Both the position numbers and the translations under genes were made by a program. Below are positions 609 through 38,900 of a stretch of 48,053 nt of DNA, piece after piece. Under the pieces are notes generated by a model that saw only the letters and a program-made list of their open reading frames with translations, was not told the origin of the DNA and did no database searches. Source of the DNA: an uncultured Verrucomicrobiota bacterium (GTDB lineage: Bacteria; Verrucomicrobiota; Verrucomicrobiia; Limisphaerales; UBA1096); assembly GCA_913030945.1 (NCBI GenBank), contig CAJWEP010000003.1:1-48053 (forward strand), given 5' to 3'. Position 1 is the stretch's first letter. Each line of letters starts with the position of its first letter.

Positions 609-1393
609 ATCAAGCCCTGGATAACAAGACTATCGTCATCGTCGGCGGGACGACCGGGCTGGGCCTGTCCGCCGCCAAGGCGTTCGTCAGCGAGGGGGCG
701 CAGATTGTCGTGGTGGGACGCAACGCCGACAGCGTGGCCAAGGCGGAGTCGCCGCTTGGCCAAGCGGCGCGCGGCTTGGCCGGCGATGCGACGGATCCGC
801 AGACCACACTCGAGGCAATCGGCTTGGCCAAGCGGGAATTCGGCGGATTCGACGGCCTTTACCACGTCGCCGGCGGCAGTGGACGAGCGATGGGCGATGG
901 ACCGCTGCACGAGATCAGCGACGACGGTTGGCGGCAGACGATCGACCTGAATCTCACCTCGGTTTTCAACTCAAACCGCGCCGCGCTGCGGGAGTTTGCC
1001 GCGCTTGGCCAAGGCGGCGTAATTCTCAACATGACCTCGGTACTGGCCGACTCCCCCGCCCCGAGCCATTTCGCGACGCACGCCTACGCGGCGGCCAAGG
1101 CCGGGATCGTTGGCCTCACGAAGTCGGCGGCGGCGCAGTACGCCACGCAAAACATCCGGGTGAACGCCATCGCACCGGCGCTCGTCGCCACGCCGATGTC
1201 CGGCCGCGCACAGGCGAGCGACGAAATCATGAGCTTCATCAAACAGAAGCAACCGCTGGACGGAGGCCGGATCGGCATGCCGGAAGATTTGGATGGCGCA
1301 GCGGTTTTCCTGATGTCCGCCGCCGCCAGTTTTATCACCGGCCAAGTGCTGGCCGTCGATGGCGGCTGGAACGTCAGCGAGGGGGAGGGATGA
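605..1393 (+). CDS. SDR family NAD(P)-dependent oxidoreductase
   Basis: GGTTGLG Rossmann motif, YAAAK catalytic motif, C-terminal ITGQVLAVDGG; GTGA overlap with purB stop. Confidence 0.92.
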   Translation: MNQALDNKTIVIVGGTTGLGLSAAKAFVSEGAQIVVVGRNADSVAKAESPLGQAARGLAGDATDPQTTLEAIGLAKREFGGFDGLYHVAGGSGRAMGDGPLHEISDDGWRQTIDLNLTSVFNSNRAALREFAALGQGGVILNMTSVLADSPAPSHFATHAYAAAKAGIVGLTKSAAAQYATQNIRVNAIAPALVATPMSGRAQASDEIMSFIKQKQPLDGGRIGMPEDLDGAAVFLMSAAASFITGQVLAVDGGWNVSEGEG

Positions 1394-2277
1394 ACTACAC
1401 GATTGGGATCGACCTCGGCGGCTCATGCGTCAAGGCAGTCGTCGTCACGCCGGACGGCGAAACGTTGGCAAGGCACAACCTGCCCTTCGACGCCGAGGCG
1501 GACATGGAGTGGGCCAATCGCCTCCGCGAACTCGTTCAATCAATCGAGGAGGAACAGGGCGGCAAGCCGGACAACATGGGTTTTTCGGCCCCGGGGCTGG
1601 CGGCGCTAGACGGCAGTTGCATCATGCACATGCCGGTACGGCTCGAGGGATTGGTTGGGTTGAATTGGCAAAAGTTTTTTGATTTCGACAAGGCGATCCC
1701 GGTGTTGAACGACGGCCACGCCGCCCTCCTCGGCGAAGCCTGGCTCGGGGCGGCGCGGGGATTCCAGACCGTCATTCTGCTGACTCTTGGCACCGGCGTG
1801 GGCGGCGCGGCGCTCGTCGAGGGCAAGCTGCTGCGCGGCCGCACCGGCAAAGCCGGCCACTTTGCCCACACCAGCCTTGGCCCGGATGGCCCGCCGGATG
1901 ATTGCGGATGCCCGAGCAGCCTCGAGTTGGCCATCGGAAACTGCACCCTCCAACGCCGCTCAAACGGACGTTTCACGGATACTGGCGGAATGATCGAGGC
2001 GATCGAGAGCGGCGACGCCGAGGCGGAGGCCGTCTGGCTCAAGTCGGTCAAAGGGCTTGCCGCAGCGATCTGTTCGTTCACCAACATCCTCGATCCGGAG
2101 GCGGTCATTCTCGGCGGCGGCATCGCCAACGCAGGCGACCGGTTGTTCGGCCCGCTTCGCGAGTACCTCGACCCGCTGCTTTGGAAGACGGATGACTACG
2201 AGATTAAGCTGCTCTCCGCGCAACTGGGCGATCTCGCCGGTGCCTACGGAGCCGCAGCCAACGCGCTGGGCGTTTAG
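1390..2277 (+). CDS. ROK family sugar kinase (glucokinase-like)
   Basis: IGIDLGGS, LNDGHAALLGE, LTLGTGVGG, CGC motif; ATG at 1390 overlaps the SDR stop (ATGA). Confidence 0.9.
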   Translation: MNYTIGIDLGGSCVKAVVVTPDGETLARHNLPFDAEADMEWANRLRELVQSIEEEQGGKPDNMGFSAPGLAALDGSCIMHMPVRLEGLVGLNWQKFFDFDKAIPVLNDGHAALLGEAWLGAARGFQTVILLTLGTGVGGAALVEGKLLRGRTGKAGHFAHTSLGPDGPPDDCGCPSSLELAIGNCTLQRRSNGRFTDTGGMIEAIESGDAEAEAVWLKSVKGLAAAICSFTNILDPEAVILGGGIANAGDRLFGPLREYLDPLLWKTDDYEIKLLSAQLGDLAGAYGAAANALGV

Positions 2278-5535: not shown

Positions 5536-5669
5536 CGGCAGCAGCCTAACCGCTCGGCGCAGCCCAGAAAAGCGCAATGCGCTTGGCCAAGCGCTTGGCA
5601 GCAAAAACTTGTCAGACCCGCCGAAATCCGGATACTTGGCCAAGCGCAAGTTCAGCATTCCTCCACAAA

Positions 5670-7547: not shown

Positions 7548-10500
7548 CTACTCACTCCCTTTCAGCACCCGTTGGCACAGCGCCGGCAGCACCACCAACG
7601 TCAGCGCGGTGGCGGTGAGGATGCCGCCGATGACGACGGTGGCCAGCGGTCGCTGAACCTCCGCGCCGGTGCCGGTGGCCAACGCCATCGGAACGAAGCC
7701 GAGCGATGCAACCAACGCGGTCATCAGCACGGGGCGCAGACGTGTGAGCGCTCCCTCGCGGATGGCTTCCCCGAGCGGCCTGCCCTGATCGCGCAACTGG
7801 TTGATGAACGTGACCAGCACCAGGCCGTTCAGCACCGCCACACCCGACAACGCGATGAAACCAACCGCCGCCGAGATGGAGAACGGCAGCCCGCGCAACG
7901 CCAGCGCCGCCACGCCGCCGGTCAGCGCCAGCGGCACGGCGGTGAAGACGAGCAGCGCCGGGCGCACCGCGCCGAAGGTCGCGTGGAGCAGCAGAAAGAT
8001 CAGCACAAAACAAACCGGCACAACGACGGCTAGGCGCTGCCGGGCAGCGGTAAGATTCTCAAATTGCCCACCCCAGTCCAGCCACACTCCGGCGGGAAGT
8101 TCCACGTCCGAGTTCACCCGCTCGCGCACTTCGCTGACGAATCCAGCCAAGTCGCGCCCGCGCACGTTGCACTGCGCCACCACGCGGCGTTTGCTGTTTT
8201 CTCGGCTGACCTGAAACGGCCCCTCGGTCTGCACCACCTCCGCCAACTCGCCAAGCGGCAACACCGGCGGGAGAGCGGCACTTTCATTTGCGCCACCCGG
8301 CAAAAGGATCGGCAACGCCGCCAGCGTGGCTGCCTGCTTCCGCTTGGCCTCGGGCAATCGGACGACAATGTCGAACCGCCGGTCGCCATCGAACACCTGC
8401 CCCGCCGCGCGGCCGCCGATGGCGATGTTGACGCTCGCCACCACGGCGGCGGCATCCAGCCCGTAGCGCGCCAATATTCCGGGCCGAGGTCGCACAGTCA
8501 GTTCCGGAAGGCCGGTTGTTTGCTCAACTTTCACGTCGGCCGCGCCGGGCACGTCATTCATCACAGCGGCGATTTTTTCCGCAGTGCGCCGCAGTTCAGC
8601 CGGATTTTCGCCGAAAACCTTCACCGCAAGATCGCCCCGCACCCCGGCTATGAGTTCGTGAAACCGCATCTCGATCGGCTGGGAAAATTCGTACTTGTTG
8701 CCGACCAAGGGGGCCACGGCGTCGCGCACTTTTGACTCGATGGAAATCTCACCCTCGGGTGCACGCTTGGCCAAGCGCGGCTCCGGCCACTCGGCACGCG
8801 GCTTGAAGATGATAAGCGTGTCCGAGACACTCGGCGGCATCGTGTCGGCCGCCAGGTCGGCAGTGCCGGTTTTCGAAAAAACCAGCTCGACCTCCGGCAA
8901 CTCCGGCAGCATGGCCACGGCGCGCTCGACCTCAAGTTGCATCCGAGTGGACTGTTCGATGCCGGTGCCGGGGATGCGCATCGCGTGCATGGCGATGTCG
9001 CCCTCGTCCAACTGCGGCACGAACACCTGCCCAAGGTTCGCGAACACCACGCCCGCGCCAAGCAGTATCGCCGACGCCGCGCCGAGCACCACACCCCGGC
9101 GGCGCAGTGCAAACTCCAGCACCGGTGCGTACCCCCGCCGCGCCGTTCGCATGAGGGCGTTGTCACTCTCCGCTACGCGCCCGTTTATGGCCAGAGCCAC
9201 CATCGCCGGCACGAACGTCAGCGACAACACGAACGCCCCAGCGAGCGCGAAGATCACCGTGAGCGCCATCGGGTGAAACAGCTTCCCCTCGATGCCGGTG
9301 AGCGCGAGAACCGGCAGATAAACCACCGTGATAATGCCGACGCCGAACACGAATGGACGGCGCACTTCATGGCTGGCGGCGCGGACAACGCCGAGCCGTT
9401 CGCTGAGCGTTAGCAACCGGCCCAGTTCGCGCTGGCGGTCGGCCAAGCGGCGCAGGCAGTTCTCCACAATGATGACCGAGCCATCGATGATAATCCCGAA
9501 GTCAATCGCGCCGAGGCTCATCAGGTTGCCGCTGATGCCGGCGCGATGCATCCCAGCTGCCGCGAGCAGCATCGAGAGCGGGATGGTCAGCGCGGTGAGA
9601 AACGCGGCGCGAAGGTTGCCGAGCAGCCCGAAGAGCACGGCGATCACCAGCGCCGCGCCGTAAAACAAATTGTGCGCCACGGTGTCGATGGTGGCGTTCA
9701 CCAGCCGCGAGCGGTCGAGCACGGGCCGAACGGCAATACCCGGTGGAAGACTGCGACGCACCTCCTCCAACTGCTCCGCCGCCGCCTTGGCCACGTCGCG
9801 ACTGTTCGCGCCGGTGAGCATCATCGCCGTGCCGACCACTGCCTCATGCCCGTCGACGCTGGCGCTGCCGAGCCGCATTTCGCCGCCGAGCGTGACGTCC
9901 GCCACGTCGCCAACGCGAACTGGTGTGCCGTTACTCTGCTTCACCAAGACGTCCGCAATGGCCGCCGAGCCCCCGAGTCGGCTGCTGGCCCGTACAAGCG
10001 CCGCCGAGCCATCACGTTCAATGTAACCCGCGCCGAGACTGAGATTGTTCCGCTCCAACGCGGCGGCGAGGTCGTTGAGTGTCAGGCCATGCGCGCTCAA
10101 CGGCCCAAGCCGAGGCAGCACGTGATATTGTTTCACATAACCGCCGATGGCATCGACGTCGGCCACGAGCGGGACGGTCTTAATCTGTGGCCGGATGATC
10201 CAGTCCTGCACCGTGCGCAGATAGGCCAAGCGTTGAACCTCGTTGGTGAGCCGCTCGCCACCGGGCGTGACGAAGCCGCCCGCTTGGCCAAGCGCAGGCG
10301 GATCGAACTCCACCGCCCACATGAGCACCTCGCCAAGCCCGGTGGTGATCGGCCCCATCCTAGGCTTGATCCCCGCCGGCAATGACTCCCGCGCAGCAGT
10401 CAGCCGCTCGTTGATTTGCTGTCGAGCAAAGTAAATGTCCACCGCGTCATCAAACACCGCCGTCACCTGGCAGAAACCGTTGCGCGATATCGACCGCGTA

Positions 10501-10754: not shown

Positions 10755-11996
10755 TTAGTGCGAGTGGTCGTGCCCAGCCATGGCCTTGCCCAACTCGGCC
10801 TTGAGCAGGAAACCGCCTCGAACGACGAGCGCCTCGCCGTCCACCAAGCCACGCTTCACCGGCCTCCAGTCGTCGACCTCGGGGCCAACCGCCACCTCTC
10901 GCGCCTCGAACGTGTTCGCCTCGCCCGGCACCGGCACGAACACCACCGGCTGCCCGCCGATGTCCTGCACGGCCTTGGCCGGGACGGCGACCGATCGCTC
11001 AGCAGCGGCACCCGCCGGCAGCTTGGCCGCGACAAACATTCCGGGTCGCCATGAACCATCCCGATTGGCCACGACCGCCCGCGCCCGAACCGTGCGCGCG
11101 CCCGGCGTAGCCACCGGACTGACGTAATCGAGCGCGGCCGTGGCACTCCGACCGGTCGCCGGATCAGTCAGCGTCACGGACTGGCCCGCTTTCAACGCGG
11201 CGGCCCGCGCGGGCGACACCTCCGCAATCAGCCAGAGTTCACCCAGCCCGGCCACGACGAAAAGGTGCGACTGCTCCGGGCTAACCGTTTCGCCCAACGT
11301 GACGCCGCGCTCGACCACCGTGCCGCCGATCGGCGCGCGCACCTCGGCTTGAGGACGGATCACCCCGGTCTCCTCGAGCCGCGCGATGTCGGGCTGGGTC
11401 ATGCCGAACAATTGCAGCCGATTGCGTCCGCCGGCTTGGGTGGCCCGGGCCGACTTGAGCCGGGCCTCAGCAGCACTAAGGACGACCTCCCGTTGTTGTA
11501 CATCCGCCCGCGAGACCGCCTCGGCGGCGGCCAGTTCCCTGCCGGATTGAAAATACTGCTCCGCAGTTTGAAACCCTGTCGTGGCGGCGGCCAGTTCGGC
11601 GAGTTTGGCCAAATGATCGTTCTGCGCCGCGCCAAGCTCGGCGCTCTCGATGACGAACAACAATTCGCCCGCAGCAACCGAATCGCCGACGCCCTTGGCC
11701 AAGCGCGACACGCGGCCGCTCACCAGTGTGCCGACGTGCGCCAAGGCGTCCTCGTTGTAAGCCAGCCGCGCCGGGGCTGAAAACGTCTCACGCAACGCGC
11801 GCTGTTCCGCTTGGCCAAGCGCGATGCCGTGATGCTCGATGGCGGCGGCAGAGAGGACGATCTCATCCATGTGCGGCTCATCGGGTGAATCATGGCCGTG
11901 GCCGTGATCGCCGTGTGAATGGTCGTGTGCGTCGCCGCAGCCAACCAGCCAAAAAGCCAGCGCGCCGATGGTTGAAAAGGTGAAGATGGATTTCAT
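10755..11996 (-). CDS. czcB: CzcB-like periplasmic adaptor (membrane fusion protein) with lipobox and His-rich termini
   Basis: LVGC lipobox, HDHSHGDHGHGH, RAPIGGTV, RPGMFV, C-terminal GHDHSH. Confidence 0.88.
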   Translation of the reverse strand: MKSIFTFSTIGALAFWLVGCGDAHDHSHGDHGHGHDSPDEPHMDEIVLSAAAIEHHGIALGQAEQRALRETFSAPARLAYNEDALAHVGTLVSGRVSRLAKGVGDSVAAGELLFVIESAELGAAQNDHLAKLAELAAATTGFQTAEQYFQSGRELAAAEAVSRADVQQREVVLSAAEARLKSARATQAGGRNRLQLFGMTQPDIARLEETGVIRPQAEVRAPIGGTVVERGVTLGETVSPEQSHLFVVAGLGELWLIAEVSPARAAALKAGQSVTLTDPATGRSATAALDYVSPVATPGARTVRARAVVANRDGSWRPGMFVAAKLPAGAAAERSVAVPAKAVQDIGGQPVVFVPVPGEANTFEAREVAVGPEVDDWRPVKRGLVDGEALVVRGGFLLKAELGKAMAGHDHSH

Positions 11997-13336: not shown

Positions 13337-13407
13337 ATTTTTGAGATAAAAAAGGACACAGCACGACTGCGGACAGTCGCCAAAACGAAGTGGAGCCGGA
13401 CGGCTCT

Positions 13408-13803: not shown

Positions 13804-13908
13804 CAGGTGGCGAAACAACTCCACGTAACCGCGCCTGTCAAGGACGTAACACTTTGATGGTGCAAACAAGCTCTGTGAGATAAATTGTGCATTTACAGGA
13901 AAAAGCCC

Positions 13909-15345: not shown

Positions 15346-15355
15346 CCAAAATTTT

Positions 15356-26003: not shown

Positions 26004-26027
26004 AATGGCGCGAACGCGGAACGCAGC

Positions 26028-27641: not shown

Positions 27642-27732
27642 CGGCGGAAGATTGCCCGACGACAAAAGGCGAGTCGAGCGTCCGGCTTTTGGCTTGCGAA
27701 TCGTCCCCGCTGCCGTCACCGTCCGCGGCACG

Positions 27733-28692
27733 ATGTCTCGCGCAATTTTAACCGGAAAATGGATCGCCGTCGCACTGCTCTTCGTCGCTGCGGCAAATCC
27801 GACGTTTGCTGAAAAGATCAGTGTCTTGTACGTCGATGGACAAAACAACCACAACTGGAAAGCCATGACGCCTTACATGAAAGCGCAAATGGAGAAGACC
27901 GGATTGTTCCAAGTCGACGTGGTTACTTCCCCTCCTCGCGCCCCTCGCCCGCCGCGAAACCTGAGCGAGAGCCAAAAGGCCAAGGCGGCCGAAGCCGCCA
28001 GAAAAATCCGCGAGGAGTTTCAGGCCAAGTGGGACACCTTTCGCCCAGCGTTCAAAAAATATGATGTCATCGTGAGCAACTACAACGGCGAAGACTGGCC
28101 CGAGCCGGTCCAGCGCGCGTTTGAAAAACACATGAAGAGCGGCGGCCGCTTCATCGTCGTCCACGCCGCCGACAACTCATTCCCGAATTGGCCCGAGTAC
28201 AACCGGATGATCGGCCTTGGTGGCTGGGGCGGTCGCACCGAAAAACACGGGCCGTACGTCTACTACAACGACGAGGGCAACCTCGTCCGGAACACCCAGC
28301 CAGGTAGGGGCGGCAGCCACGGCCCGCAGCACGCCTTCAAGATCGTCGTGCGAGACGACTCCCACCCGGTCACCAACGGCATGCCGACCGAGTGGATGCA
28401 CGCTCAGGACGAGTTGTATGATTCCCTCCGGGGCCCGGCCGAGAACATGAAGATCCTCGCCACCGCCTACAGCGCCAAGAGCAAACGGCACGAGCCGATG
28501 ATGATGACAATCAACTACGGCAAGGGCATCATTTTCCACACGCCAATGGGCCACGAGAACGGGAAGTCGCTCCAATGCATCGGGTTCATCGCCACGTTGA
28601 ATCGTTCCGCCGAATGGCTGGCCACTGGCAAAGTCACCCAGGCGCTCCCAAAAAAATTCCCGACGGCCACACAGGTTTCATTGGCGGACTGA
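27733..28692 (+). CDS. Secreted ThuA-like (class I glutamine amidotransferase-fold) domain protein
   Basis: Signal peptide, DGQNNHNW, HAADN, DELY, TPMGH. Confidence 0.85.
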   Translation: MSRAILTGKWIAVALLFVAAANPTFAEKISVLYVDGQNNHNWKAMTPYMKAQMEKTGLFQVDVVTSPPRAPRPPRNLSESQKAKAAEAARKIREEFQAKWDTFRPAFKKYDVIVSNYNGEDWPEPVQRAFEKHMKSGGRFIVVHAADNSFPNWPEYNRMIGLGGWGGRTEKHGPYVYYNDEGNLVRNTQPGRGGSHGPQHAFKIVVRDDSHPVTNGMPTEWMHAQDELYDSLRGPAENMKILATAYSAKSKRHEPMMMTINYGKGIIFHTPMGHENGKSLQCIGFIATLNRSAEWLATGKVTQALPKKFPTATQVSLAD

Positions 28693-28705
28693 TACAGGCT
28701 TTCAC

Positions 28706-29215
28706 ATGAGCGAAAATGCAAATCCGACTGCGACTATCCAGACCACCAAGGGGGAAATGAGCATCGAGCTATGGCCCGATGCCGCCCCCGGCACGGTGGA
28801 AAACTTCACCAAACTCGCCAACGACGAGTTTTACGACGGCACCTGCTTTCACCGGATCATGGCTGGCTTCATGATCCAGGGCGGCGACCCGCAAACCAAG
28901 GACGAGTCGCTCGAGAATCTATGGGGCACCGGCGGGCCCGGCCATACGATCAAAGCCGAGTTCAATGACCGGCCGCACGTTCGCGGTGTCATCTCAATGG
29001 CCCGCTCGGCCGATCCCGACTCCGCCGGCAGCCAGTTTTTTGTCTGCCTGGGTAAAGCCGACTTCCTCGACGGCCAGTACACCGCCTTTGGCCAACTGAG
29101 CGCAGGCGACGACACGCTGAGCGACATCGGCGACACGTCGGTTGGACCAAGCAGCAGCGGCGAGAACAGCAAACCGCAGGAGCGCGTTGAGGTCACCAGC
29201 ATCCGCGTGGCCTGA
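28706..29215 (+). CDS. Cyclophilin-type peptidyl-prolyl isomerase
   Basis: FYDGTCFHR, FMIQGGDP, SMAR, GSQFF, LDGQYTAFG. Confidence 0.95.
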   Translation: MSENANPTATIQTTKGEMSIELWPDAAPGTVENFTKLANDEFYDGTCFHRIMAGFMIQGGDPQTKDESLENLWGTGGPGHTIKAEFNDRPHVRGVISMARSADPDSAGSQFFVCLGKADFLDGQYTAFGQLSAGDDTLSDIGDTSVGPSSSGENSKPQERVEVTSIRVA

Positions 29216-29422
29216 CTTGACCAAGCGCTACCTTGCCCCGCGTGAGCCAACCCGATGACAACGCCGGCGTGCCCAAGCTAGCTGACCACAATGGGTTGCT
29301 CCGAGGCCAGGGCTGGTGTGATGACCGCGCAGTTGGCTAAAGGCGAAACATCTCACACGACGAAGCCACGGCACACCTGCTGAACCTCATGTGACAGGGC
29401 TGGGCCACTAAGGAACAAATCG

Positions 29423-29986
29423 ATGCCGATTAAAAATCCAGAACTGACCCCCTGGCCGCTGAAGGAGAGCCGCTACGCTGACGACTACAAAATTTTCAAG
29501 GTGCGCTCGGACCGCCGCACCTCACCGCGCACCGGCGACGAGCACGAGTTTTTTGTGATCGAGTCGGTGGACTGGTGCAACATCATCGCCCTGACGCTGG
29601 ACGATCAACTGGTGATGGTTGAGCAATACCGGCAGGGAACCAACCTCATCGAACTGGAACTTCCCGGCGGAATGATCGATCCCGGCGAAAACCCGCTGGA
29701 AACAGCAGTGCGCGAGTTGCGCGAGGAAACCGGCTATGCCGGCGATGCGCCCGAGAGCGGCGGATTCGTTTACGCCAACCCAGCGATCATGAACAACAAG
29801 GTGCACACCGTCATCATCCGCAACGCCAGCAGCCAGCACGTCACCCAACTCGACGCCGGTGAGGACCTGATCACCCGACTCGTGCCGCTCGATGAGATTC
29901 CGAAATTGGTCGAGAACGGCACGATCGGCCACTCGCTGATGGTCGCCGCGCTCTTCCGGTTTCAGATTGCGGAAAACGCCAACTAA
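29423..29986 (+). CDS. NUDIX hydrolase (ADP-ribose pyrophosphatase-like)
   Basis: Nudix box GMIDPGENPLETAVRELREETGY, QYR. Confidence 0.92.
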   Translation: MPIKNPELTPWPLKESRYADDYKIFKVRSDRRTSPRTGDEHEFFVIESVDWCNIIALTLDDQLVMVEQYRQGTNLIELELPGGMIDPGENPLETAVRELREETGYAGDAPESGGFVYANPAIMNNKVHTVIIRNASSQHVTQLDAGEDLITRLVPLDEIPKLVENGTIGHSLMVAALFRFQIAENAN

Positions 29987-30255
29987 GGGCGAATCTCGTT
30001 TTTCTTCTGCTCGAGTTCCTCCTCGAGCACCTTCCGCTCGCTGGCCAACTGCTTGTTCAACTGCTCGACCTGCTCGATTTCGCCAGCCGCCTCGGCCTTC
30101 TCGATCTCACCGTTGAGGAACACCTCGCGGTCTGCGATCTTCGCCTCGTACACCTTGCTAATCTCGGCCAGCTTGGTCTTCAACTCATCACTCAATTCCT
30201 GGGTTGGAGACTCCTTTTCCAACCGTTCCATCGCCAGTTCGTATGCTGATTTCAT
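29983..30255 (-). CDS. Small coiled-coil hypothetical protein (MKSAYELAMERL type)
   Basis: Acidic helical ORF with typical codon usage; ATG 30255. Confidence 0.75.
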   Translation of the reverse strand: MKSAYELAMERLEKESPTQELSDELKTKLAEISKVYEAKIADREVFLNGEIEKAEAAGEIEQVEQLNKQLASERKVLEEELEQKKNEIRP

Positions 30256-30287
30256 TTTAAACTTATTAGGGAAGTTGGACGAATCCA

Positions 30288-30758
30288 TCACCCATCTCGG
30301 CCGCCCTCCGCTTGGCCTTTGTTACGATTCTTCCGCCACGGCATGTCCGGGAACTTGCCCGGCAGCTTAAACGACTCCGCTTTGGGCTTGGCCATTTGCA
30401 GTTCGTCATCGCCAGCGGCGCTTAAGGCCGCGTCCGCGCCGGGTTGTTTCCACGAAGCGATCTTCGACTGGAGCCCATGATGCTCGGCCGCCTCCTTGTT
30501 GCCTGTTTTCATGTAAAACAGCGAAAGGTTCGTGTGAACCAACTGGTCGTTGGGGCACAGTTTCTCGGCCTTGTGCCCTTCCTCAATCGCCCGCTCGTAT
30601 TGCTTCAGTCGGCACAACGCCATGCTGAGCGACATGCGGGCGTCGAAATAGTTTCTGTCCGCCGCGAGGATCGCCTCGAAGCCGTCGACCGCCTGCTCGT
30701 ACTCGCCTTGACTGAAGGCGAACGTGGCCTCATCAAATTGTTCCTGCAACTCGTCCAT
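30288..30758 (-). CDS. Tetratricopeptide repeat protein
   Basis: TPR-like helices (GEYEQAV, AIEEG..A..L.PND..VHTNLS); ATG 30758. Confidence 0.8.
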   Translation of the reverse strand: MDELQEQFDEATFAFSQGEYEQAVDGFEAILAADRNYFDARMSLSMALCRLKQYERAIEEGHKAEKLCPNDQLVHTNLSLFYMKTGNKEAAEHHGLQSKIASWKQPGADAALSAAGDDELQMAKPKAESFKLPGKFPDMPWRKNRNKGQAEGGRDG

Positions 30759-30826
30759 TGAAACCAGGCGCTTGGCCAACCTAACGGCGCCGGTGTCATG
30801 CGGCAAGCGCTTGACCAAGCGCAAAC

Positions 30827-30858
30827 AAAAAAAAGCCCCGGCAGCAACCCGCCGGGAC
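30827..30858 (-). terminator. Rho-independent terminator of the cytochrome c/LRR gene
   Basis: Minus strand: CCCGGC-GGGTTGCT-GCCGGG stem-loop followed by an 8-T tract, just after stop 30882. Confidence 0.8.
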
Positions 30859-30881
30859 CTCGAGAAAAATCGTTTACCTGT

Positions 30882-32213
30882 TTATTTTTTTACCTTGGCA
30901 ATGTGCTTGGCCGGTTCCTTGGTAAAGTCGCCAAGGCAGTTGTCGCAGCAGAAACCGATCACGAATTTCTTGGATGCATCGATGTCCTTGCCGCTGATCG
31001 GGCACTTATTATTGCCCGGCCCCTTGATTTTGGCGATGTGCTTGGCCGGTTCCTTGGTAAAGTCCCCGAGACAGTTGTCACAGCAGAAGTTAATGGCGAA
31101 GAGCTTGGCCGGATCGACGGCCTTGCCGCTGACCGGGCATTTCTTGTTGAAGCTGACCTGCTTCGCTTCCTCTTTCTTTACTTTCTTTTTTTCAGGTTTG
31201 GGCTCTTCTTTTTTGGGTTTGGGAGCTTCCTTCTTCTCCTCTTTCTTAGGCTCGACCTTGGCAAGTTTGAAGCCGAGGTTGACATCTATGTTAGGCAACG
31301 CCTTCTTCAGCTCAGCTGCACCTTTCTCGGTCACACCGCTTTGCCAGGCATAAAGCTTGTACAGGAATTTCATGTCCTTGAGGCTGGCCAAGCCGGCGTC
31401 GGTAACCTTGGTGTTGTAGAGGTTAAGCGACATCAGGTTAGTGAGCCCCTCGATCTGTTTCAGCGCCGCGTCATCGACCGATGTGTTGGCCAGGCTCAGC
31501 TTGGTCAAGTTCGTATTACCCTTGATGTAACCCAGACCTTTGGCGGTAATTTTCGTATTAGCCAAATCCAACTCGGACAGATTTGTGATGTCAGCCAGAG
31601 GAACGATGTTGTCATCATTGACATTTTTCCCGACCAAGCGGAAGTTGGCATAAATAAGTTTGGTGTTTTGCGCCAGTGCCATTACCAGTGGAGCAGAGGA
31701 TTTGTCCCCGATCCCCTCGCCGGAACTGAGCTTGGCGATGGCAGCCTTCTCAGCATCGGAAACGGGCGCCTCCTTGATTTTCGGCTCTGGCAACCTGTTG
31801 GCGGCAGCCTTGGCAGCAGCCCGATCCTTGGCGCTGATTAACACCAATCCTTCCGGCCAGTTAGCGCCCTCATCGATCCACTTCTTAATGGTTTCAATCT
31901 GCTCCTTGGTCAAAGGATCACCCTTGGACGGCATAATGTCGTCGTGATCTGCCGGAAGCGAAATGTGCTTGTAGATTCCACTCTCGGCGGATTTGCCTGG
32001 AACCAAGACTGGTTCCTCGCTTTCACCTCCCTTCAAGGTGGCCTCAAGAGTGTCCATCCGAAGTTCACCTTTCGGCTTTTTCAGACCATGACACTCGACG
32101 CAACGCGCCTCAAAAATACTTTGGATCGATTTAACAAAATCAACCTTATCCTCCGCCCAGCCATCCAGGGCAAAGGCGCCAACAGAAAGAATTATTGCAA
32201 TTGTTTTTCTCAT
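30882..32213 (-). CDS. Exported protein: planctomycete-type cytochrome c + LRR + Lys/Glu/Pro linker + two YHS/TRASH-like Cys repeats
   Basis: Signal peptide, VDF..I...CVECHG...MP...WIDEGA, LRRs (LxxLxLxNTxITD), two CP(V/I)SGK...FCCDNC repeats. Confidence 0.85.
   Translation of the reverse strand: MRKTIAIILSVGAFALDGWAEDKVDFVKSIQSIFEARCVECHGLKKPKGELRMDTLEATLKGGESEEPVLVPGKSAESGIYKHISLPADHDDIMPSKGDPLTKEQIETIKKWIDEGANWPEGLVLISAKDRAAAKAAANRLPEPKIKEAPVSDAEKAAIAKLSSGEGIGDKSSAPLVMALAQNTKLIYANFRLVGKNVNDDNIVPLADITNLSELDLANTKITAKGLGYIKGNTNLTKLSLANTSVDDAALKQIEGLTNLMSLNLYNTKVTDAGLASLKDMKFLYKLYAWQSGVTEKGAAELKKALPNIDVNLGFKLAKVEPKKEEKKEAPKPKKEEPKPEKKKVKKEEAKQVSFNKKCPVSGKAVDPAKLFAINFCCDNCLGDFTKEPAKHIAKIKGPGNNKCPISGKDIDASKKFVIGFCCDNCLGDFTKEPAKHIAKVKK
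30895..31150. repeat. 135-bp-period tandem duplication encoding the two Cys repeats
   Basis: ATGTGCTTGGCCGGTTCCTTGGTAAAGTC at 30901 and 31036. Confidence 0.9.
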
Positions 32214-32280
32214 TTTCGCGTGAATCCAGACGCAGATTATCCACGATGTATTTATCGATGGCAACCGGAAAATTGCGCTT

Positions 32281-32743
32281 TATTATAACAGAAAATGTCC
32301 TCTTTGGGACTCGTGACCAGGCCAAGGGAACTCAACGAAGTCTTGAGTTCGAAGAGTCCCTAGTGGTGCAGAGAGACTGGACAGCGAAGGGACAGAACAA
32401 CCGCTATCAACTGGATCGATGACACGAAAGCCTGAGCTTGTTGGACAAAACGATCATCGTGCGGTTCTTACGCGATGAAAGCCTGCAGATGGTTTATCAG
32501 GGCAGGAAACTCAAATGGCAGCAGTTGCCCGAAGAAGCGCCGCAAGTCAAAGACGCAGAGAAACAGCCGAGCCCCACAAAACGCCAGATCCTGGGCAGAG
32601 CCGGCGCGAACAGCCCATGGAGAAAGAAGAAACAGCATAGAGCGAAGGCGCGTAAGCCTGTTGCCCCTCCACCCCCCTCATGCGACACATCGCGATCACG
32701 CTCCTGATCCCCGTCCATGAGGATATTTAAGAAAGTTTTGACA
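32281..32743 (+). mobile_element. Internally deleted, decayed IS1202/ISNCY-like insertion sequence
   Basis: In-frame transposase C-terminal fragment (VVQRDWT...YQLDR*HESLSL...VRFLRD...YQGRKLKW...SPWR) with a TGA at 32420; degenerate inverted ends TATTATAACAGAAAATGTCCTC / GAGGATATTTAAGAAAGTTTTGACA. Confidence 0.65.
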
Positions 32744-32764
32744 CCCGCTTGGCCAAACGCCCGG

Positions 32765-33754
32765 TCACCTCGCGGAAATCTCGAGCATACGCTCGATCGG
32801 CTGCCGGGCGCGTTCGATGATGTCGCCGGGAAGCGTCAGCTCCGGGGAACGGTTGGCCATGCAGTCGTGCAGTTTTTCGAGCGTGTTCATTTTCATGAAG
32901 CGGCACTCGTTGCAGGCGCATTTATCAGTCGGCGCGGGGATGAACTGTTTCTCGGGGCATTCCTTCTGCAAGCGATGCAGCATGCCGAGCTCGGTGGCGA
33001 TGATCACCGCCTTGGCCCGTGAGTCGCGGCAGAAGTGAACCATTTTCTCAGTGGAGCAAACCTCGTCGGCGAGCATGCGCACGGCCTTGGTGCACTCGGG
33101 ATGCGCCACCAGCGGCGCGTCGGGGTGCTCTCGGCGAATCCGCGTGATGCTCTCGTGCGTCCACTCGACGTGCACGTAACAATCGCCCTGCCACATCGTC
33201 ATGGGCCGGCCGGTCTGCTCGGTCACCCACGAGCCGAGATTCTCATCCGGCACAAACAACAAATCGCGATCCGCCGGCGCGGCCTCGACGATTTTCTTCG
33301 CGTTGCCGCTGGTGCAGATCACGTCGCTCAGCGCCTTGACCTCCGCACTACAGTTGACGTAGGCGATGGTGTAAAAGTTGGGGTTCGTCGCCTGCAACTC
33401 GCGCAGCTTGTCCGGCGGACAGCTCTCCTCGAGCGAACAGCCGGCGTCGCGATCCGGCAGCAGCACGGTTTTTTTCGGCGACAGAATCTTCGCCGTCTCG
33501 GCCATGAAATGTACACCGCAAAACACGATGACCGCCGCATCGGTTTCGGCCGCCTGTCGCGAGAGGCCCAGCGAGTCACCCACGTAGTCCGCCAAGTCTT
33601 GAATCTCCGGCACTTGGTAATTGTGCGCGAGGATCACGGCGTTGAGATCCTCCTTGAGCTGGAGAATCTCCCGGGAAAGCACGTCAAGCTGCTCCGGCGG
33701 GGTCCGCCGCTCCACGCGGAAACCGGCGACGGCGCTCGGCTGGATCTCGGTCAT
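32765..33754 (-). CDS. nadA: Quinolinate synthase
   Basis: ILAHNYQ, GDSL, FCGVHFMAE, YVNCSAEVKA, CTSGNA, HPEC. Confidence 0.96.
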   Translation of the reverse strand: MTEIQPSAVAGFRVERRTPPEQLDVLSREILQLKEDLNAVILAHNYQVPEIQDLADYVGDSLGLSRQAAETDAAVIVFCGVHFMAETAKILSPKKTVLLPDRDAGCSLEESCPPDKLRELQATNPNFYTIAYVNCSAEVKALSDVICTSGNAKKIVEAAPADRDLLFVPDENLGSWVTEQTGRPMTMWQGDCYVHVEWTHESITRIRREHPDAPLVAHPECTKAVRMLADEVCSTEKMVHFCRDSRAKAVIIATELGMLHRLQKECPEKQFIPAPTDKCACNECRFMKMNTLEKLHDCMANRSPELTLPGDIIERARQPIERMLEISAR

Positions 33755-33845
33755 GTCGATCACGGCAGAAACGGTACGGCTATCGCTGGGCCGGGTCAAC
33801 CGGGGCTTGCCTCGATTGGCCAAGCGGGTATTTTCCCGTAGCAAC

Positions 33846-35123
33846 ATGAGCACACAAATCACCCGCCGCCGTTTCGTCCAGCAAAGCGCGTTTACCCTCC
33901 TCGCTGCCGGAAGCGCGCGGACCTATGCCGCCAACGAGAAGCTCGACATCGGCATCGTTGGCGTGGCCAACCGGGCCAAGGCCAACCTCAACGGTGTCGC
34001 TGGCGAAAACATCGTCGCGCTGTGCGACGTGGACAGCAACTTCCTCGCTCGCGAGGCCGGGCGCTTCCCGCGGGCGCACCAGTACGCCGATTTCCGCCGG
34101 ATGATCGGGCGCGAAAAGCTCGACGCGCTCGTCGTAAGCACGCCGGACCACACCCACGCCGTCGCCACCACCGCCGGCCTGCACAATGGCCTGCACGTTT
34201 ACTGCGAAAAACCGCTGACGCGCACCGTCTCCGAGTGCCGCGCCGTCACCGAACTAGCCCGGCGCAACAAGCTCGTCACGCAAATGGGCACACAAATCCA
34301 CGCCGAAGATAATTACCGTCGGGTTGTCGAGTTGCTGCGCGCCGGGGCAATCGGCACGGTGAAGGAAGTACACGTCTGGGTCGGCGGAAATTTCGGCGGT
34401 GGCTCCCGTGGAACCGGGAAACACAGAGTACCGGCCAATCTCAATTACAACCTCTGGCTGGGGCCGACTCGCTATCACATCCCGTATCACCCAACGCATC
34501 ATCCGTTCAAGTGGCGGCAGTGGTGGAACTTCGCCGGGGGCACGCTCGCCGACATGGGCTGCCACCACATCGACCTGAGCCACTGGGCGCTTGGCCTGCG
34601 GCACCCCAACCGGATCGAGGTCGTCAAGGGACCCAAGCCAGACGCCGAGGCCACGCCGTATTCGCTCGTGGTTGATTTCCATTACAAAGCACACGGCAAA
34701 CAACCCGCCACCAAGCTGCGCTGGTATCATGGCAATCACCGCCCGCCACACTTTGCCAATGGGCTACTCCCCGAGTGGGGCAACGGCAGCCTGTTCGTCG
34801 GCAGCAAGGGCATGCTGCTCGCCGACTACGGCAAACACGTGCTGCTGCCGGAAAAGGAATTCAAGGATTACGAGCGACCCAAGCCCAGCATCCCCCGCTC
34901 GCTTGGCCATCACCGAGAATGGATTCACGCCATCAAGACCGGCGGCACCACGACCTGCCACTTCGACTACGCCGGACCACTGACCGAGGTGGTGCTGCTC
35001 GGCAACATCGCCCACCGCACCGGCGCGCCCCTCGAGTGGGAACACGTGAAAATGAAACTCACCGGCCACCCGAAGGCCGCCGAGCTCATGCGGCACCTCT
35101 ATCGCGCCGGCTGGCACCTTTGA
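33846..35123 (+). CDS. Tat-exported Gfo/Idh/MocA oxidoreductase
   Basis: TRRRFV Tat motif, STPDHTH, YCEKP, DMGCH. Confidence 0.92.
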   Translation: MSTQITRRRFVQQSAFTLLAAGSARTYAANEKLDIGIVGVANRAKANLNGVAGENIVALCDVDSNFLAREAGRFPRAHQYADFRRMIGREKLDALVVSTPDHTHAVATTAGLHNGLHVYCEKPLTRTVSECRAVTELARRNKLVTQMGTQIHAEDNYRRVVELLRAGAIGTVKEVHVWVGGNFGGGSRGTGKHRVPANLNYNLWLGPTRYHIPYHPTHHPFKWRQWWNFAGGTLADMGCHHIDLSHWALGLRHPNRIEVVKGPKPDAEATPYSLVVDFHYKAHGKQPATKLRWYHGNHRPPHFANGLLPEWGNGSLFVGSKGMLLADYGKHVLLPEKEFKDYERPKPSIPRSLGHHREWIHAIKTGGTTTCHFDYAGPLTEVVLLGNIAHRTGAPLEWEHVKMKLTGHPKAAELMRHLYRAGWHL

Positions 35124-35187
35124 CCGGCGCTTGGCCAAGCGCACGAAAGACTGGCCAAGCCGGCCAGCCGCATGCTAGATTTCTGCC

Positions 35188-35748
35188 ATGCCAATCGACC
35201 AAGTAATCAAGGAAACCGAGGAAAAGATGGCCAAGTCCGAGGCGGCCATGATGCACGAGTTCGAGGGAGTCCGCACCGGCAAAGCCAACCCGGCGCTGGT
35301 GGAGAACCTCATGGTGGACGCCTACGGCTCGACCATGCGCCTCCGTGACATGGCCGGCATCACCGCCCCTGAGACACGAATGATCCTCATCCAGCCATGG
35401 GACGCCGGCACGGCGGAGGCCATCGCCAAGGCCATCCAGGCTGCCAACCTCGGCCTCAACCCGGCCATCGACGGCAAGGTCATCCGCCTCGTCCTGCCGG
35501 AGCTCAGCCAGGAACGCCGCGAGGAACTGGTCAAGGTGGCCAGAAAGATCACAGAGGATGGCCGGGTGGCGGTGCGTCATGTCCGCCGCGATGCCAAGGA
35601 TGGCCTGAAGAAATCAGCCAAGGAAGTCGGCGTCTCCGAGGATGAAATCAAGGGTGCGGAAAAACAGGTGCAAAAACTGACCGACGACTTCATCAAAAAA
35701 CTCGACGGACACCTCGCTGACAAGGAAAAGGAAATCCTGACGGTGTAA
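35188..35748 (+). CDS. frr: Ribosome recycling factor
   Basis: VRTGKANP, IQPWD, LGLNP, ERREELVK, KEKEIL. Confidence 0.97.
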   Translation: MPIDQVIKETEEKMAKSEAAMMHEFEGVRTGKANPALVENLMVDAYGSTMRLRDMAGITAPETRMILIQPWDAGTAEAIAKAIQAANLGLNPAIDGKVIRLVLPELSQERREELVKVARKITEDGRVAVRHVRRDAKDGLKKSAKEVGVSEDEIKGAEKQVQKLTDDFIKKLDGHLADKEKEILTV

Positions 35749-35774
35749 GGGGTCGATACTCCGAATTTCAGACC

Positions 35775-35960
35775 TCACTTTGCCCGGTTCCGGCAAGTTC
35801 GCAAACGACTCCCTCTCACGGCCTCGAGTGAGCGAATGGACTCCTGGAGCCGTTGGGCATTCGCAGGGACTCGCAGGAGATAAGCCGTCTCTTCAACAGC
35901 CACCTCATTCTCAAGAAAACTTACGTCCACTGGCTGTTTTTCTTTTCCACTGATATTCAT
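35775..35960 (-). pseudogene. YefM/Phd antitoxin remnant
   Basis: EETAYLLRVPANAQRLQESI matches the YefM C-terminal toxin-binding segment; the N-terminal DNA-binding part and a YoeB toxin are absent. Confidence 0.65.
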
Positions 35961-38900
35961 TTTGCTACAGCTACTTTGTTCGCCTCCCGATTTGTCGGGG
36001 TGAATTTGTGGATCAGCTTGCCGGTGTTGACGTTCCAGAGCCGGAGGATGCCGTCGAAGCCCCCGCCGACAGCCAACCTACCGTCCGGTGTCACGTCGCT
36101 GGTGTGCATGTAGGCACTAGTGTCCGGCAGGCGGCGCACCTCGCCACCGTCCTCTTTCACAACTTTCACGACATGATCACCGGCTGAGACGACTGCCTGC
36201 GTGCCGATGCCAAGGAAGTGCACCGAGGTGACTTCTTTGTCGAATCCGCTGAATGATTTCTTTTGTTCGCCGTTTAATAGGTTCCAGATTTTCACCGCCT
36301 TGTCGGCGCCGACGGTGGCCAGCACGCGGCCGTTTTGCTGCCAACTCACACCCAGCACGTGGCCGGTGTGCCCTTCGAGCGCCCGGAGTTCCCTGCCCCG
36401 GCTGGTCTCGAACACACGAGCAAAGCGGTCGGTGCCGCCCGTGGCCAAGCGACTGCCGCTCGGAGAGAAGGCCAGCGAGCAGACCGTGTCGCTGTGTGCC
36501 ATGGGGATTCGCAATTCCTCGGAGCCGTCCTCCATGCTCCAGATGAAAATCTCCCCGCCGCGCGACGGGAATCCGCCGCCGGTGGCGAGCCATTGGCCGT
36601 CGGGGCTAAAGTCTAGTGCGATCACACGGTCCTCGAACGGCGATTCATCGTTGCCGCCGATGGATCGTGCCAAAGCCCACATCGGCTCGACGGCGAGCAT
36701 CAACATCTCCGGAGAATCGCCGGTCAATGCCAACCGCCCGTTGCTCAACGGCTGCATAAACCGTGCCGACCGAGCGGACGAGTCAACGGCATGCGAACGG
36801 ATGCCGGTGGCGCTGGCCCAAGCCTGAACCCGCCCATCGACGGACAGCGTGTAAACCAGCAATCCGTCGTCCGAGTATGTAGTATCGATCCAATCCTGCA
36901 TCCCCGCGGCCGCCACCGACTTGGCCTCGGCGAGCGCTGCTTCGTGCCGGACGGGCAGTTTGTCGGCTTCGGCCTGCGCTGCCCTGGTTTGCTCCAGGTT
37001 CGCCTCGGCAGTTTGGATGTTTTTGCTGGTGAACCCAACTTCCGACTTGGCCAAGTCAACCTCACGCTTGGCTTTCTTGATCGCATTGCCGGCATCGGCT
37101 GTTTTTTTATCGAGCGCTTTTTTCTCCTCCGGCGTTTTCTTTTTGCGTTCCTCGAGTGCGGCCAGGGCTTTCACTTTTCCTTCGAACTCCTCCTGTGCCG
37201 GCTTCACTTTGGCCTCGGCCGAGGCGAACGAGCGGGCAGCAGCTTGTGCCCCGGTTTCCGTCTTGGCCAGTTGCTGCCTGGCCGGGGCGAACCGGTCGAG
37301 CGCAGACTCGAATTGGTCGGCCTTGCGCTTGGCCAAGGCAGCGGCGACATCGGCCTGCATGGCCAACGCCTCGTCTCCCTTGGCCTTGTCGGCCGAGGTG
37401 CGCACGTCTGCGGCCAGCTGCCGGGCGTTCTGAGCAGCCGAGCCAAGTTCCATCAACTCGGCGGTCAGTTTCGCTTTGACGGTGGCGGCTTGGGCCTTGG
37501 CCTCGCGGGCCTTGGCCAGGGCATCCTTGGATTCGGCGGTCCGCGCCTGCGCCGCCTTCAACGCTGCGTCGGCACCGGACTTGGCTTTTGTCGCGGTCTC
37601 GATTTTTTTCGGCAGTGCGGCGATTTCGTCGGTCAGTTTTTTCAGGCTGGCTTCGCTGTCATTTTTCTCCTTGGTTTTGTCGGCCACGGTTTTTTCATGC
37701 TTGGCCAAGGCCTCTGTCGCCTTCTTCGCGGCTTCCCTGTCCTTTTTGAGTTCCTTCTCTTTGCTCTCGACGTTGGCCTTGTGGTAGCCGGTCTCGGCCT
37801 TCACAAATGCCAGCGCCTGCTCTGCCCGTGCCACCGACTCGGCGGCGAGCGGGTTGCCTTCCAGTTGGGCTGTCATCGCCCACTTGTTTGTTGACCAAAG
37901 TTTCGCCGTCGGCCCTCCGAGGGTGGCGAGTTGTTCGCCGTCGGCCCGAATCCGTAGTCCGGTTACAGGCGCGCCGTGGTCGAGTGCCCCGATCTGCCTG
38001 CCGTCCTCGACACTCAGGACCATCACCGTGTTGTCGGCACGGCCGGCAAGCACTGTGTCTCCCCCCGGCAATGCCGCCAGCGCGGTGATGTCACCGCCCG
38101 GTTTCCATTCGTGCACATCTTGTCCGGGGTTGATCGCAGCCCAGATTTTGATAATGCCGCCGGGATGCGCTGACACGAGCTGTTCGTCGTCCAGCCAAAC
38201 GACGGCTTGGACCGCCGGTGGCGATGATTCGCGCGTGACGCGCTCCCCGGTCACTGTTTCCCAGACACGCACTTTTCCATCGGTAAACGACACGGCGACC
38301 CGGTTGCCGTTGGGCGACACGGCCAATTGTCCGGCTGCCTGGCCCGGGACTTGGTCGCTCCAGAGCGGCATCATGCTTTGCAGATTGATCGCCTGGACTG
38401 CCCCGGCCGAGCCGGCAACGAGCACACGCCCCCGGCCAGGAGCGGCGCCGAATGCTGTGACTGACTCGCCGCCGGACAGCAAGGTCAGCGGGCGGGCCGC
38501 CGACGCCGTTTGCCGCCGCCAAAGCTTGGCCACGCGATAACCTCCCGAAGCCAGCATTTGGCCGTCGGGGCTGAACGCGAGCGACTGCACGACATCCCGA
38601 TGCGCCACGGCGACCGCGGCGGGGTTACCCTTGGCCAAGGCAGGATCGAAAAGCCGGGCGGCAAGGCGGCGGGTCGGCAAGTGGTAGACAAACACCTGAT
38701 TGCCACGGCCACAGGCGGCGTACTGGCCGTCCGGCGAAATGGCAGCGGTGTAAATCGGCTTAAGGGCGAAAGGAAGCGGACGCCAGTTCAATTCCTGCGT
38801 CACCCGTGGCACTTCGCCCTTGGCACCTTCATCGATCCAAAGCTTGAGGAGGCCAAGCTGGTGGGGCGTAAGCTTGCCGGCGCTGACCTTGTTACGCCGC

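Follow-up and report, generated by a model that had tools for sequence, protein, structure and literature searches.

A highly iterated palindrome in one genus of marine Verrucomicrobiota, probably spread by a force acting on DNA

The window analysed here is the whole 48,053-nucleotide stretch of contig CAJWEP010000003.1 (assembly GCA_913030945.1) from an uncultured bacterium of the Verrucomicrobiota, and our subject is a 10-base palindrome, CTTGGCCAAG, that recurs throughout it, within genes and between them. We found that this motif is the top-ranking 10-mer of the genome, that it is confined to one genus and that its copies inside genes are mostly derived replacements at variable positions. 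On balance we favour the view that it is a lineage-specific iterated palindrome spread by a force acting at the DNA level, filtered by what proteins tolerate and most likely dependent on natural transformation.

Under this view, the element would spread by point substitution, with no selection on the encoded peptides, and purifying selection on proteins would decide where copies settle, leaving them densest in non-coding DNA, especially just past stop codons. The frame would be whichever one the local protein tolerates (xLAK, LGQ[A/V/G] or [A/T/P]WPS), and the force would roughly quadruple LAK and LGQ in the proteome, overriding codon preference. A preliminary description of the window had already proposed that a DNA-level force creates the sites wherever the protein allows them; this is now supported by codon usage and by comparison with orthologues.

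Abundance and distribution of the palindrome

The source genome (G000; 3,413,498 bases in 345 contigs, 59.5% GC, 93.6% complete) carries 1,722 copies of CTTGGCCAAG, i.e., 505 per Mb. A third-order Markov model predicts 22, which corresponds to a 78-fold over-representation, and all the next most common 10-mers overlap this one. The window holds 25 copies, against 0.11 expected (none of 100 shuffles had more than one), 24 of them within positions 750-38639 and the remaining one at 40864. The 8-base core TTGGCCAA is present 37 times, against 0.95 expected. CTTGGCCAAG is itself the core of a longer element, sCGCTTGGCCAAGCGs, with symmetric flanks: C/G at 81-82% beside the core, then G/C at ~60%, then C/G at ~59%, then S. 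The 14-mer form has 492 copies (0.3 expected), and conservation ends at ~16 bp, with no conserved flanks beyond. Like HIP1 (GCGATCGC), the cyanobacterial highly iterated palindrome, the motif is thus over-represented by at least one to two orders of magnitude, at hundreds of copies per Mb. Among the matches listed by a full-text search with the 8-, 10- and 12-mers (20 of 1,052), no paper reports it as a repeat and all titles are on unrelated topics, and nothing relevant emerged from a literature search joining Verrucomicrobia with palindrome and uptake terms.

The best named relative in terms of LeuS is 87% identical. Counts of the 10-mer across the genus and its order, with those of the reversed word as a control where given, show that the motif is confined to one genus:

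20 genomes of the genus: 766-3,286 copies
G041, of the same genus: 427 copies
5 motif-poor genomes of the genus: 41-65 copies (reversed word, 1-4)
16 other families of the order: 0-48 copies (reversed word, 2-31)

GC content is ~41% in the five motif-poor genomes, ~51% in G041, 57-64% in the motif-rich genomes and 58-60% in the outgroups. In an outgroup-rooted tree of LeuS and IlvD, the motif-poor clade is nested within the genus beside G012, G041, G003 and G019 (support 98/94). At sites such as LeuS DLAK, both main clades have the exact motif, and the motif-poor clade and G041 have forms with one to four mismatches. It is therefore likely that the poor clade lost the motif, rather than never having fully gained it.

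The width of this genus is an observation in its own right: a single GTDB genus spans ~41% to 64% GC (GC at third codon positions, GC3, of LeuS from 31% to 87%), with conserved synteny and proteins that are 72-90% identical. Among 18 motif-rich genomes, the GC content of LeuS and motif density have a Spearman correlation of 0.65, uncorrected for phylogeny.

Reading frames, codons and origin by substitution

We called genes with a simple custom codon-model caller (2,527 genes, 89% of the genome), whose 5' ends are those of the longest open reading frame (ORF) and are over-extended. Among 1,382 in-gene sites, 779 are read in the LAK frame, 519 in the LGQ frame and 84 as [A/T/P]WPS (the WP frame). 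Trimming every ORF by its initial 15% or 80 codons leaves 927 sites (566, 326 and 35, respectively), and blocks aligned to orthologues of one congener (G001) contain 181 (105, 65 and 11). The WP frame thus accounts for 4-6% of in-gene sites. The preliminary description had held that the palindrome is written into proteins in two frames only, with the WP frame restricted to shadow ORFs. This is true of the window, where the single WP-frame site (5582) lies upstream of the probable start of dnaX. It does not extend to the genome, given the counts above and an exact WP-frame copy in LeuS (P/A-W-P-S) that is present in 13 of the 24 genus genomes having LeuS at that column. Moreover, all four WP sites that could be aligned to the motif-rich genome G016 are conserved in it.

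The third frame is therefore real and is not excluded by the force. Under codon independence, one expects 10.8, 2.6 and 0.06 sites in the LAK, LGQ and WP frames, so that the observed numbers exceed expectation 72-, 196- and 1,385-fold. The share of compatible peptides that are encoded by the motif tells the same story: 775 of 1,601 xLAK (48%), 518 of 824 LGQ followed by V, A, D, E or G (63%) and 84 of 131 [SPTA]WP[SR] (64%). Relative to opportunity, the WP frame is used as much as the other two, and it is rare because few protein positions accept Trp-Pro. As for HIP1, the enrichment concerns all three frames and non-coding DNA.

The consequences for the proteome are large. LAK and LGQ are its two most enriched tripeptides (3.9-fold), with 1,826 occurrences against 466 expected from composition and 1,165 against 300, respectively. 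The next ones are GQA, WPS (3.6-fold) and AKR, all of which are read from the extended palindrome. The enrichment goes with one spelling. LAK is written TTG GCC AAG in 988 of 1,826 cases (54%), compared with 5.7% expected from codon usage, and LGQ is written CTT GGC CAA in 648 of 1,165 (56%), compared with 2.4%. The motif was previously said to use TTG, CTT and CAA in genes with a preference for CTC, CTG and CAG, and genome-wide usage bears this out: leucine is encoded by CTG (36.9%) and CTC (27.0%) ahead of TTG (18.5%) and CTT (12.5%), and CAA makes up 33% of glutamine codons.

We then compared the sites with their orthologues in G031, an outgroup from another family of the same order, matched in GC content (61.1%), in which the 782 kb compared contain 3 copies of the motif. 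Across 314 orthologue pairs (62% amino-acid identity), the background identity of tripeptides is 30.5%, and motif-coded tripeptides are kept far less often: 10 of 99 LAK (p = 2e-6), 6 of 63 LGQ (p = 1e-4) and 1 of 11 WPS. In the reverse direction, the source genome retains 32 of the 84 LAK of G031 and 12 of its 23 LGQ. Over these same columns, LAK, LGQ and WPS number 183, 114 and 13 in the source genome and 84, 23 and 4 in G031. Similar results were obtained with the motif-poor congener G001 (353 pairs), in which 19 of 105 LAK and 11 of 65 LGQ are kept against a background of 43.5%. Most LAK and LGQ sites are thus derived replacements at variable positions, and not peptides conserved in outgroups and spelled with average codons. 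Because 181 of 210 sites align to G001 orthologues without gaps, they arose by substitution rather than insertion.

Codon alignments of five window genes across eleven genomes illustrate two routes. Replacement at variable positions produced HisS PLGQAL, LeuS ALGQG and IlvD NLAK; a minority of sites, such as LeuS DLAK and IlvD VLAKY, result from synonymous recoding of conserved peptides. The HisS PLGQA site is exact in all five motif-rich genomes aligned, and its residues are replaced in four of five motif-poor congeners. The LeuS ALGQG site is exact in 10 genus genomes, and comparison with the motif-poor clade and the outgroups shows its Gln to be derived. In LeuS DLAKD, the peptide is conserved in outgroups and the site, made synonymously, is exact in 18 of 19 motif-rich genomes. 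The peptide of IlvD VLAKY is also conserved and the exact motif is found only in G000 and G023, which points to a recent synonymous gain.

Once formed, sites tend to persist. The comparison with G016 (170 orthologue pairs, 84% amino-acid and 71% third-position identity) revealed an identical 10-mer at 69 of 92 sites (75%), against a background of 19-24% for in-frame 10-mers and 31-41% for those with conserved amino acids. The same codons are better conserved inside than outside the motif (TTG 86% versus 45%, CTT 81% versus 34%, CAA 72% versus 46%). Both sites and codons are thus more conserved than controls between related genomes, as reported for HIP1. Individual sites nevertheless turn over, with lineage-specific decays and recent synonymous gains in the site matrix. 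Cores in G001 orthologues coincide with those of the source genome in 10 of 27 cases, against 0 of 6 in G031, a non-significant difference (p = 0.14). These coincidences fit shared ancestry, to which convergence at conserved LAK or LGQ peptides could contribute. A DNA-level force could have been contradicted by motif codons no better conserved than others or by LAK and LGQ being as common in sister families that lack the motif; the data went the other way on both counts.

Placement of the copies and the sites of the window

The density of the motif follows the lack of constraint. Non-coding DNA has 0.91 copies per kb and coding DNA 0.45, with 80% of copies inside genes. Density is highest in intergenic regions between convergent genes (2.18/kb), and in tandem ones the copies lie at a median of 14 nt past the upstream stop codon. 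The longer palindrome is commoner among non-coding copies (43% versus 25%). Within genes, density decreases from 0.63/kb in the least conserved quartile to 0.25/kb in the most conserved one, and the fifth of genes with the lowest GC3 has the lowest density (0.21/kb).

Pfam profiles support the identity of these genes in the window: SDR, DnaX, AcrB/CzcA-type, HlyD/CzcB-type, OEP, RF1, HisS, LeuS, IlvD, Lnt, NadA and PSCyt1-WD40. Eighteen of the 25 sites are in Pfam-supported genes (10 LAK, 8 LGQ), two LAK sites are in unverified short ORFs and five are non-coding. The peptides listed in the preliminary description for SDR, CzcA, CzcB, HisS, LeuS, IlvD, Lnt and the WD40 protein were all recovered when the sites were mapped onto genes; we add RLAKG in the HlyD/CzcB-type gene and GLAKL in lnt, and count four LAK sites in the PSCyt1-WD40 gene. 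The copies of CTTGGCCAAG are as follows:

755..764, SDR gene (605-1390, plus strand), LGQ frame, PLGQA
823..832, SDR gene (605-1390, plus strand), LAK frame, GLAKR
1004..1013, SDR gene (605-1390, plus strand), LGQ frame, ALGQG
5582..5591, 5' of the probable dnaX start (~5534, minus strand); AWPS only in an over-long ORF; treated as non-coding leader
5635..5644, dnaX leader, second copy, LAK-frame, 53 nt from the copy at 5582
8766..8775, AcrB/CzcA-type transporter gene (7551-10742, minus strand), LAK frame, RLAKR
10283..10292, AcrB/CzcA-type transporter gene (7551-10742, minus strand), LGQ frame, ALGQA
11694..11703, HlyD/CzcB-type gene (10758-11996, minus strand), LAK frame, RLAKG
11810..11819, HlyD/CzcB-type gene (10758-11996, minus strand), LGQ frame, ALGQA
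13468..13477, unverified 153-aa ORF (13411-13869, minus strand), LAK frame, GLAKR
15942..15951, intergenic, 11 nt past the ORF end at 15931 and 15 nt ahead of hisS
16932..16941, hisS (15966-17204, plus strand), LGQ frame, PLGQA
19594..19603, leuS (18317-20977, minus strand), LGQ frame, ALGQG
19919..19928, leuS (18317-20977, minus strand), LAK frame, DLAKD
21011..21020, intergenic, 12 nt 3' of the ilvD stop and 5' of leuS (both minus strand)
21092..21101, ilvD (21032-22849, minus strand), LAK frame, VLAKY
26234..26243, lnt (26031-27866, minus strand), LGQ frame, PLGQV
27300..27309, lnt (26031-27866, minus strand), LAK frame, GLAKL
27614..27623, lnt (26031-27866, minus strand), LGQ frame, KLGQV
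35130..35139, first codons of an unverified 126-aa ORF (34767-35144, minus strand), LAK frame, RLAKR; may be intergenic
37046..37055, PSCyt1-WD40 gene (35960-39229, minus strand), LAK frame, DLAKS
37328..37337, PSCyt1-WD40 gene (35960-39229, minus strand), LAK frame, ALAKR
37700..37709, PSCyt1-WD40 gene (35960-39229, minus strand), LAK frame, ALAKH
38630..38639, PSCyt1-WD40 gene (35960-39229, minus strand), LAK frame, ALAKG
40864..40873, intergenic (between 40749 and 40976), outside 750-38639

Twelve further copies of the core TTGGCCAA (range 11605..44520), which lack the full 10-mer, start at 11605, 13227, 16590, 26145, 26845, 29088, 30772, 32749, 33816, 40130, 40826 and 44513. They are one-off or partial forms, and those in genes are again in LAK- or LGQ-type frames.

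The longest dnaX ORF begins at 5676 (minus strand), and VSYQVIARKYRPQRF, near 5534, is downstream of the sites at 5582 and 5635. We take VSYQVIARKYRPQRF to be the N-terminus of DnaX, in which case the protein probably starts there. The two copies in this leader (5535-5676) can pair into a long hairpin (-39.7 kcal/mol, z = -1.86), with 9 of 200 shuffles as stable. Genome-wide, motif pairs less than 150 nt apart are in excess (185, where 126 +/- 10 would be expected), and those at 500-1,000 nt are fewer than expected; close pairs in the window include 755/823, 5582/5635, 11694/11810 and 21011/21092. Two stretches of ~7 kb (27624-35129 and 40874-48053) lack the full motif and have a lower GC content (57-59%). 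They carry a PSCyt1-LRR gene, nadA, several GFO/IDH/MocA oxidoreductases and a DUF5060 protein. They may be younger or atypical DNA, since low-GC3 genes carry fewer motifs throughout the genome.

Transformation genes, rival explanations and known systems

If the force depends on natural transformation, cells could preferentially take up DNA that bears the motif, as for uptake signal sequences, or incoming DNA could be processed or converted in favour of the motif during recombination that depends on RecA and DprA. In the lineages of the genus that have lost ComEC (the DNA channel) and DprA (the RecA loader), most of the motif and a large part of the GC content are also gone. We searched for the two proteins with the Pfam models and the source-genome proteins as queries. 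In the motif-rich genomes, ComEC was found in 14 of 20, DprA in 14 of 20 and either in 18 of 20, whereas neither was found in any of the five motif-poor genomes or in G041. Since 38 of 39 genomes from other families of the order have ComEC, its absence within the genus reflects loss. Synteny agrees: dprA is missing between conserved neighbours in G006, G001, G011 (516-bp spacer) and G041 (340 bp), and the comEC locus shows an excision in G011 (57-bp junction) and a replacement in G041, the gene also being missing from this conserved locus in G001, G004 and G008. Of the eight genomes in which neither gene was found, seven have the lowest motif densities in the genus (12-291 per Mb). At least two losses were independent, because G011 is in a different main clade from the other losers. 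G011 (291/Mb, 59% GC), G041 (133/Mb, 51%) and the poor clade (12-23/Mb, 41%) form a series that looks like progressive decay after gene loss, with G011 as the recent case.

As controls of detection in the motif-poor genomes, PilM_2, T2SSE, LeuS, IlvD, HisS and RF1 were each recovered in five of five. PilM_2 and T2SSE, markers of type IV pili and type II secretion systems, are present in both clades and do not discriminate between them. ComEA, sought with PF12836, was uninformative; the matches are HhH domains in ORFs of 370-500 aa from both clades. The source genome itself encodes ComEC, DprA, RecA, PilM_2 and T2SSE ATPases, and thus has the host uptake and processing genes that accompany known uptake sequences. 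A more specific version of the hypothesis is that the palindrome is a methylation-free signal for DNA uptake or recombination in this marine genus, and that lineages without comEC and dprA stopped importing DNA and so fell from ~500-900 to 12-290 copies per Mb and from ~60% GC to 51% and 41%. We advance this version tentatively, with more doubt than confidence.

Several observations weigh against a transformation-dependent spread. The link is correlative, with few independent events among related genomes. Neither gene was found in G012, whose density is 705 copies per Mb (completeness 67%, locus not recovered). G011 lacks both genes and still has 291 copies per Mb, which fits a recent loss but weakly. 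Neither Pfam model nor source-genome query detected RecA in four of the five motif-poor assemblies (G004, G006, G008 and G024; 67-89% complete). This low-GC clade may have lost recombination generally, or recA may lie in a poorly binned region. Its absence makes the signal of the competence genes less specific to uptake, and biased uptake and biased conversion of imported DNA cannot be separated. As ComEC and DprA are near-universal in the motif-free families of the order, they can neither suffice nor confer the specificity, and the explanation still needs a factor particular to the genus. The drop in GC (from ~60% to 41%) is confounded with motif loss, although composition alone would, by arithmetic, lower the expectation ~2-fold, against an observed fall of ~30-fold. 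The placement of the poor clade as sister to all others was not rejected by an approximately unbiased test (p = 0.081), genome-wide frame counts depend on a gene caller that over-extends 5' ends, and competence in this uncultured lineage is presumed from its genes. Finally, we know of no uptake sequence that is a palindrome, and published ones are spaced more evenly than the copies studied here. In the 345-contig assembly of the source genome, we saw no regular spacing in next-neighbour distances, which are near-Poisson (coefficient of variation 0.95 versus 1.00 +/- 0.03).

Could the palindrome instead be the selected binding site of a dimeric DNA-binding protein, e.g., a nucleoid-organising or segregation factor with a chromosome-wide function, that decayed once this protein was lost? 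A perfect palindrome with flanks symmetric to 14-16 bp is what one expects of dimeric binders, and the sites are conserved well above background between species, a pattern that was read as selection in the case of HIP1 (PMC5861425). This explanation comes without a candidate protein, and it fits poorly with a density that tracks the lack of constraint (highest in intergenic DNA and poorly conserved genes), a near-random spacing and the cost of one copy per 2 kb inside proteins. Under it, that the motif was lost together with comEC and dprA in two or more lineages would have to be a coincidence. We thus consider it rather unlikely. Biased mismatch repair directed by methylation, as in Elhai's model of HIP1, seems less probable still. 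There, an orphan methyltransferase would mark an inner site (e.g., GGCC or TGGCCA) and repair would regenerate the palindrome. The top one-off variants, transitions at positions 2 and 9 (694 copies, 20-fold over expectation), are in line with this, and HIP1 and alternate HIPs co-occur with cognate methyltransferases in cyanobacteria (PMC4390886). The families PF00145, PF01555, PF02384 and PF02086 have no match in the source genome, and 20 of its 30 proteins with [DNS]PP[YFW] were scanned, among which the only methyltransferases were PrmC and RsmD. A cognate (orphan) DNA methyltransferase like those of HIP1 was thus not found, its absence being unproven in a 93.6% complete assembly. Across the 26 genomes of the genus, PF00145 is present in two and PF01555 in one; of these, only G010 is motif-rich, and G008, with both families, is motif-poor.

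The placement of non-coding copies, i.e., their peak in convergent regions, their position just past stop codons and their more frequent extension, could also suggest an RNA-level element, whose transcript hairpin would act as a terminator, stabiliser or processing site. Yet three single copies folded in context were no stabler than shuffles (z = +0.52, -0.73 and +0.14), runs of T follow just 45 of 345 non-coding copies, the window has no Rfam match and four-fifths of the copies are in genes, in all three frames. This makes such a role very improbable. Hardly credible, in our opinion, are selection on the LAK and LGQ peptides themselves and the insertion of copies by a mobile miniature element. 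The strong enrichment of both peptides in the proteome would be expected under the former, but it is limited to one codon spelling, and three unrelated peptides share one DNA word with non-coding copies. The gap-free alignment of orthologues indicates substitution, and there is no conservation past ~16 bp.

The sporadic methyltransferases of the genus deserve a separate mention. The only matches are one C5 enzyme in G010 (C53) and several C5 and N4/N6 enzymes in G008 (C283, C75, C47 and C130), one of the latter containing 6 in-frame stops. They resemble restriction-modification or mobile genes with no relation to the motif. Four ORFs of the source genome with [NS]PPY have no Pfam or NCBIfam family (C19:25558-26748, C61:10291-11409, C17:13201-13659 and C165:6649-7800), and their best matches are weak GNAT or beta-propeller ones. 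They are most likely chance matches to the tetrapeptide, and a possible hiding place for an unrecognised methyltransferase.

To our knowledge, nearly all known highly iterated palindromes are cyanobacterial, and uptake sequences have been described in two families of proteobacteria. It has been debated for decades whether selection, biased repair or biased uptake maintains motifs of this kind. The palindrome resembles HIP1 and the alternate cyanobacterial HIPs in being short, GC-rich, extended palindromically, present at hundreds of copies per Mb and found in all frames and non-coding DNA. The tests of conservation of sites and codons are those of Xu et al. and had the same outcome (PMC5861425). 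It differs in being another word, in Verrucomicrobiota rather than cyanobacteria and in one genus rather than a phylum, and in that no cognate methyltransferase was found. HIP1 itself was recently proposed to be tied to natural transformation (bioRxiv 10.1101/2024.09.10.611283; PMC13756078).

With the uptake signal sequences of Pasteurellaceae and the DNA uptake sequences of Neisseriaceae, the motif shares many copies (about one per 1-2 kb), the enrichment of the encoded tripeptides, the bias towards poorly conserved genes and residues, and competence genes that go with it. Findlay and Redfield showed in 2009 that uptake sequences favour genes and residues with little conservation, avoid atypical genes to some degree and accumulate just 3' of genes (PMC2817400). 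The first two patterns are reproduced here; as to the third, copies lie close past stop codons, few are followed by runs of T and single copies have no unusual hairpin stability. Unlike them, the motif is a perfect palindrome, with a near-random spacing and a tripeptide enrichment of ~4-fold instead of ~2-fold, and a role in uptake would be deduced from genes and motif distribution. Repetitive extragenic palindromes, bacterial interspersed mosaic elements and miniature inverted-repeat transposable elements are also repeated palindromic sequences that are denser between genes than within them. We rejected mobile repeats of this type, as the copies are 10-16 bp long, 80% intragenic and in frame, made by substitution as shown by gap-free alignments, and devoid of conserved flanks. 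GC-biased gene conversion, which Lassalle et al. reportedly described in bacteria in 2015, would predict that a recombination-linked motif and GC fall together in the lineages that lost transformation genes, as they do here. It is not sequence-specific, whereas the present force would act for a single 10-16-mer, which it would favour some 100- to 1,000-fold.

A highly iterated palindrome without a methyltransferase, whose persistence appears to depend on the transformation machinery, thus brings a comparably extreme motif to an unrelated and uncultured marine phylum. The case is useful in having no detectable methyltransferase, a ~4-fold effect on two tripeptides of the proteome in addition to newly created Trp-Pro, and relatives with comEC and dprA deleted that represent graded stages of motif and GC decay. 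The question of drive or function thereby becomes testable by comparative and population genomics in public metagenomes. If the more specific version of the hypothesis is correct, uptake-type motifs would be kept by an ongoing transformation-dependent drive and not by per-site function, and transformation-linked conversion would hold up the GC content of a free-living bacterium. For annotation, lineage-specific LAK, LGQ and AWPS peptides and odd codon usage should not be taken for functional protein motifs.

The source species is widespread in the sea and varies very little in sequence. At least 99% of the 31-mers sampled from positions 14000-23000 of the window are found in 18 runs, all stored as assembled contigs (in which variants are dropped), from 10 studies (2014-2025). 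Apart from one metagenome of a hydrothermal vent and one record whose organism name is coded, these are metagenomes from seawater and other marine sources.

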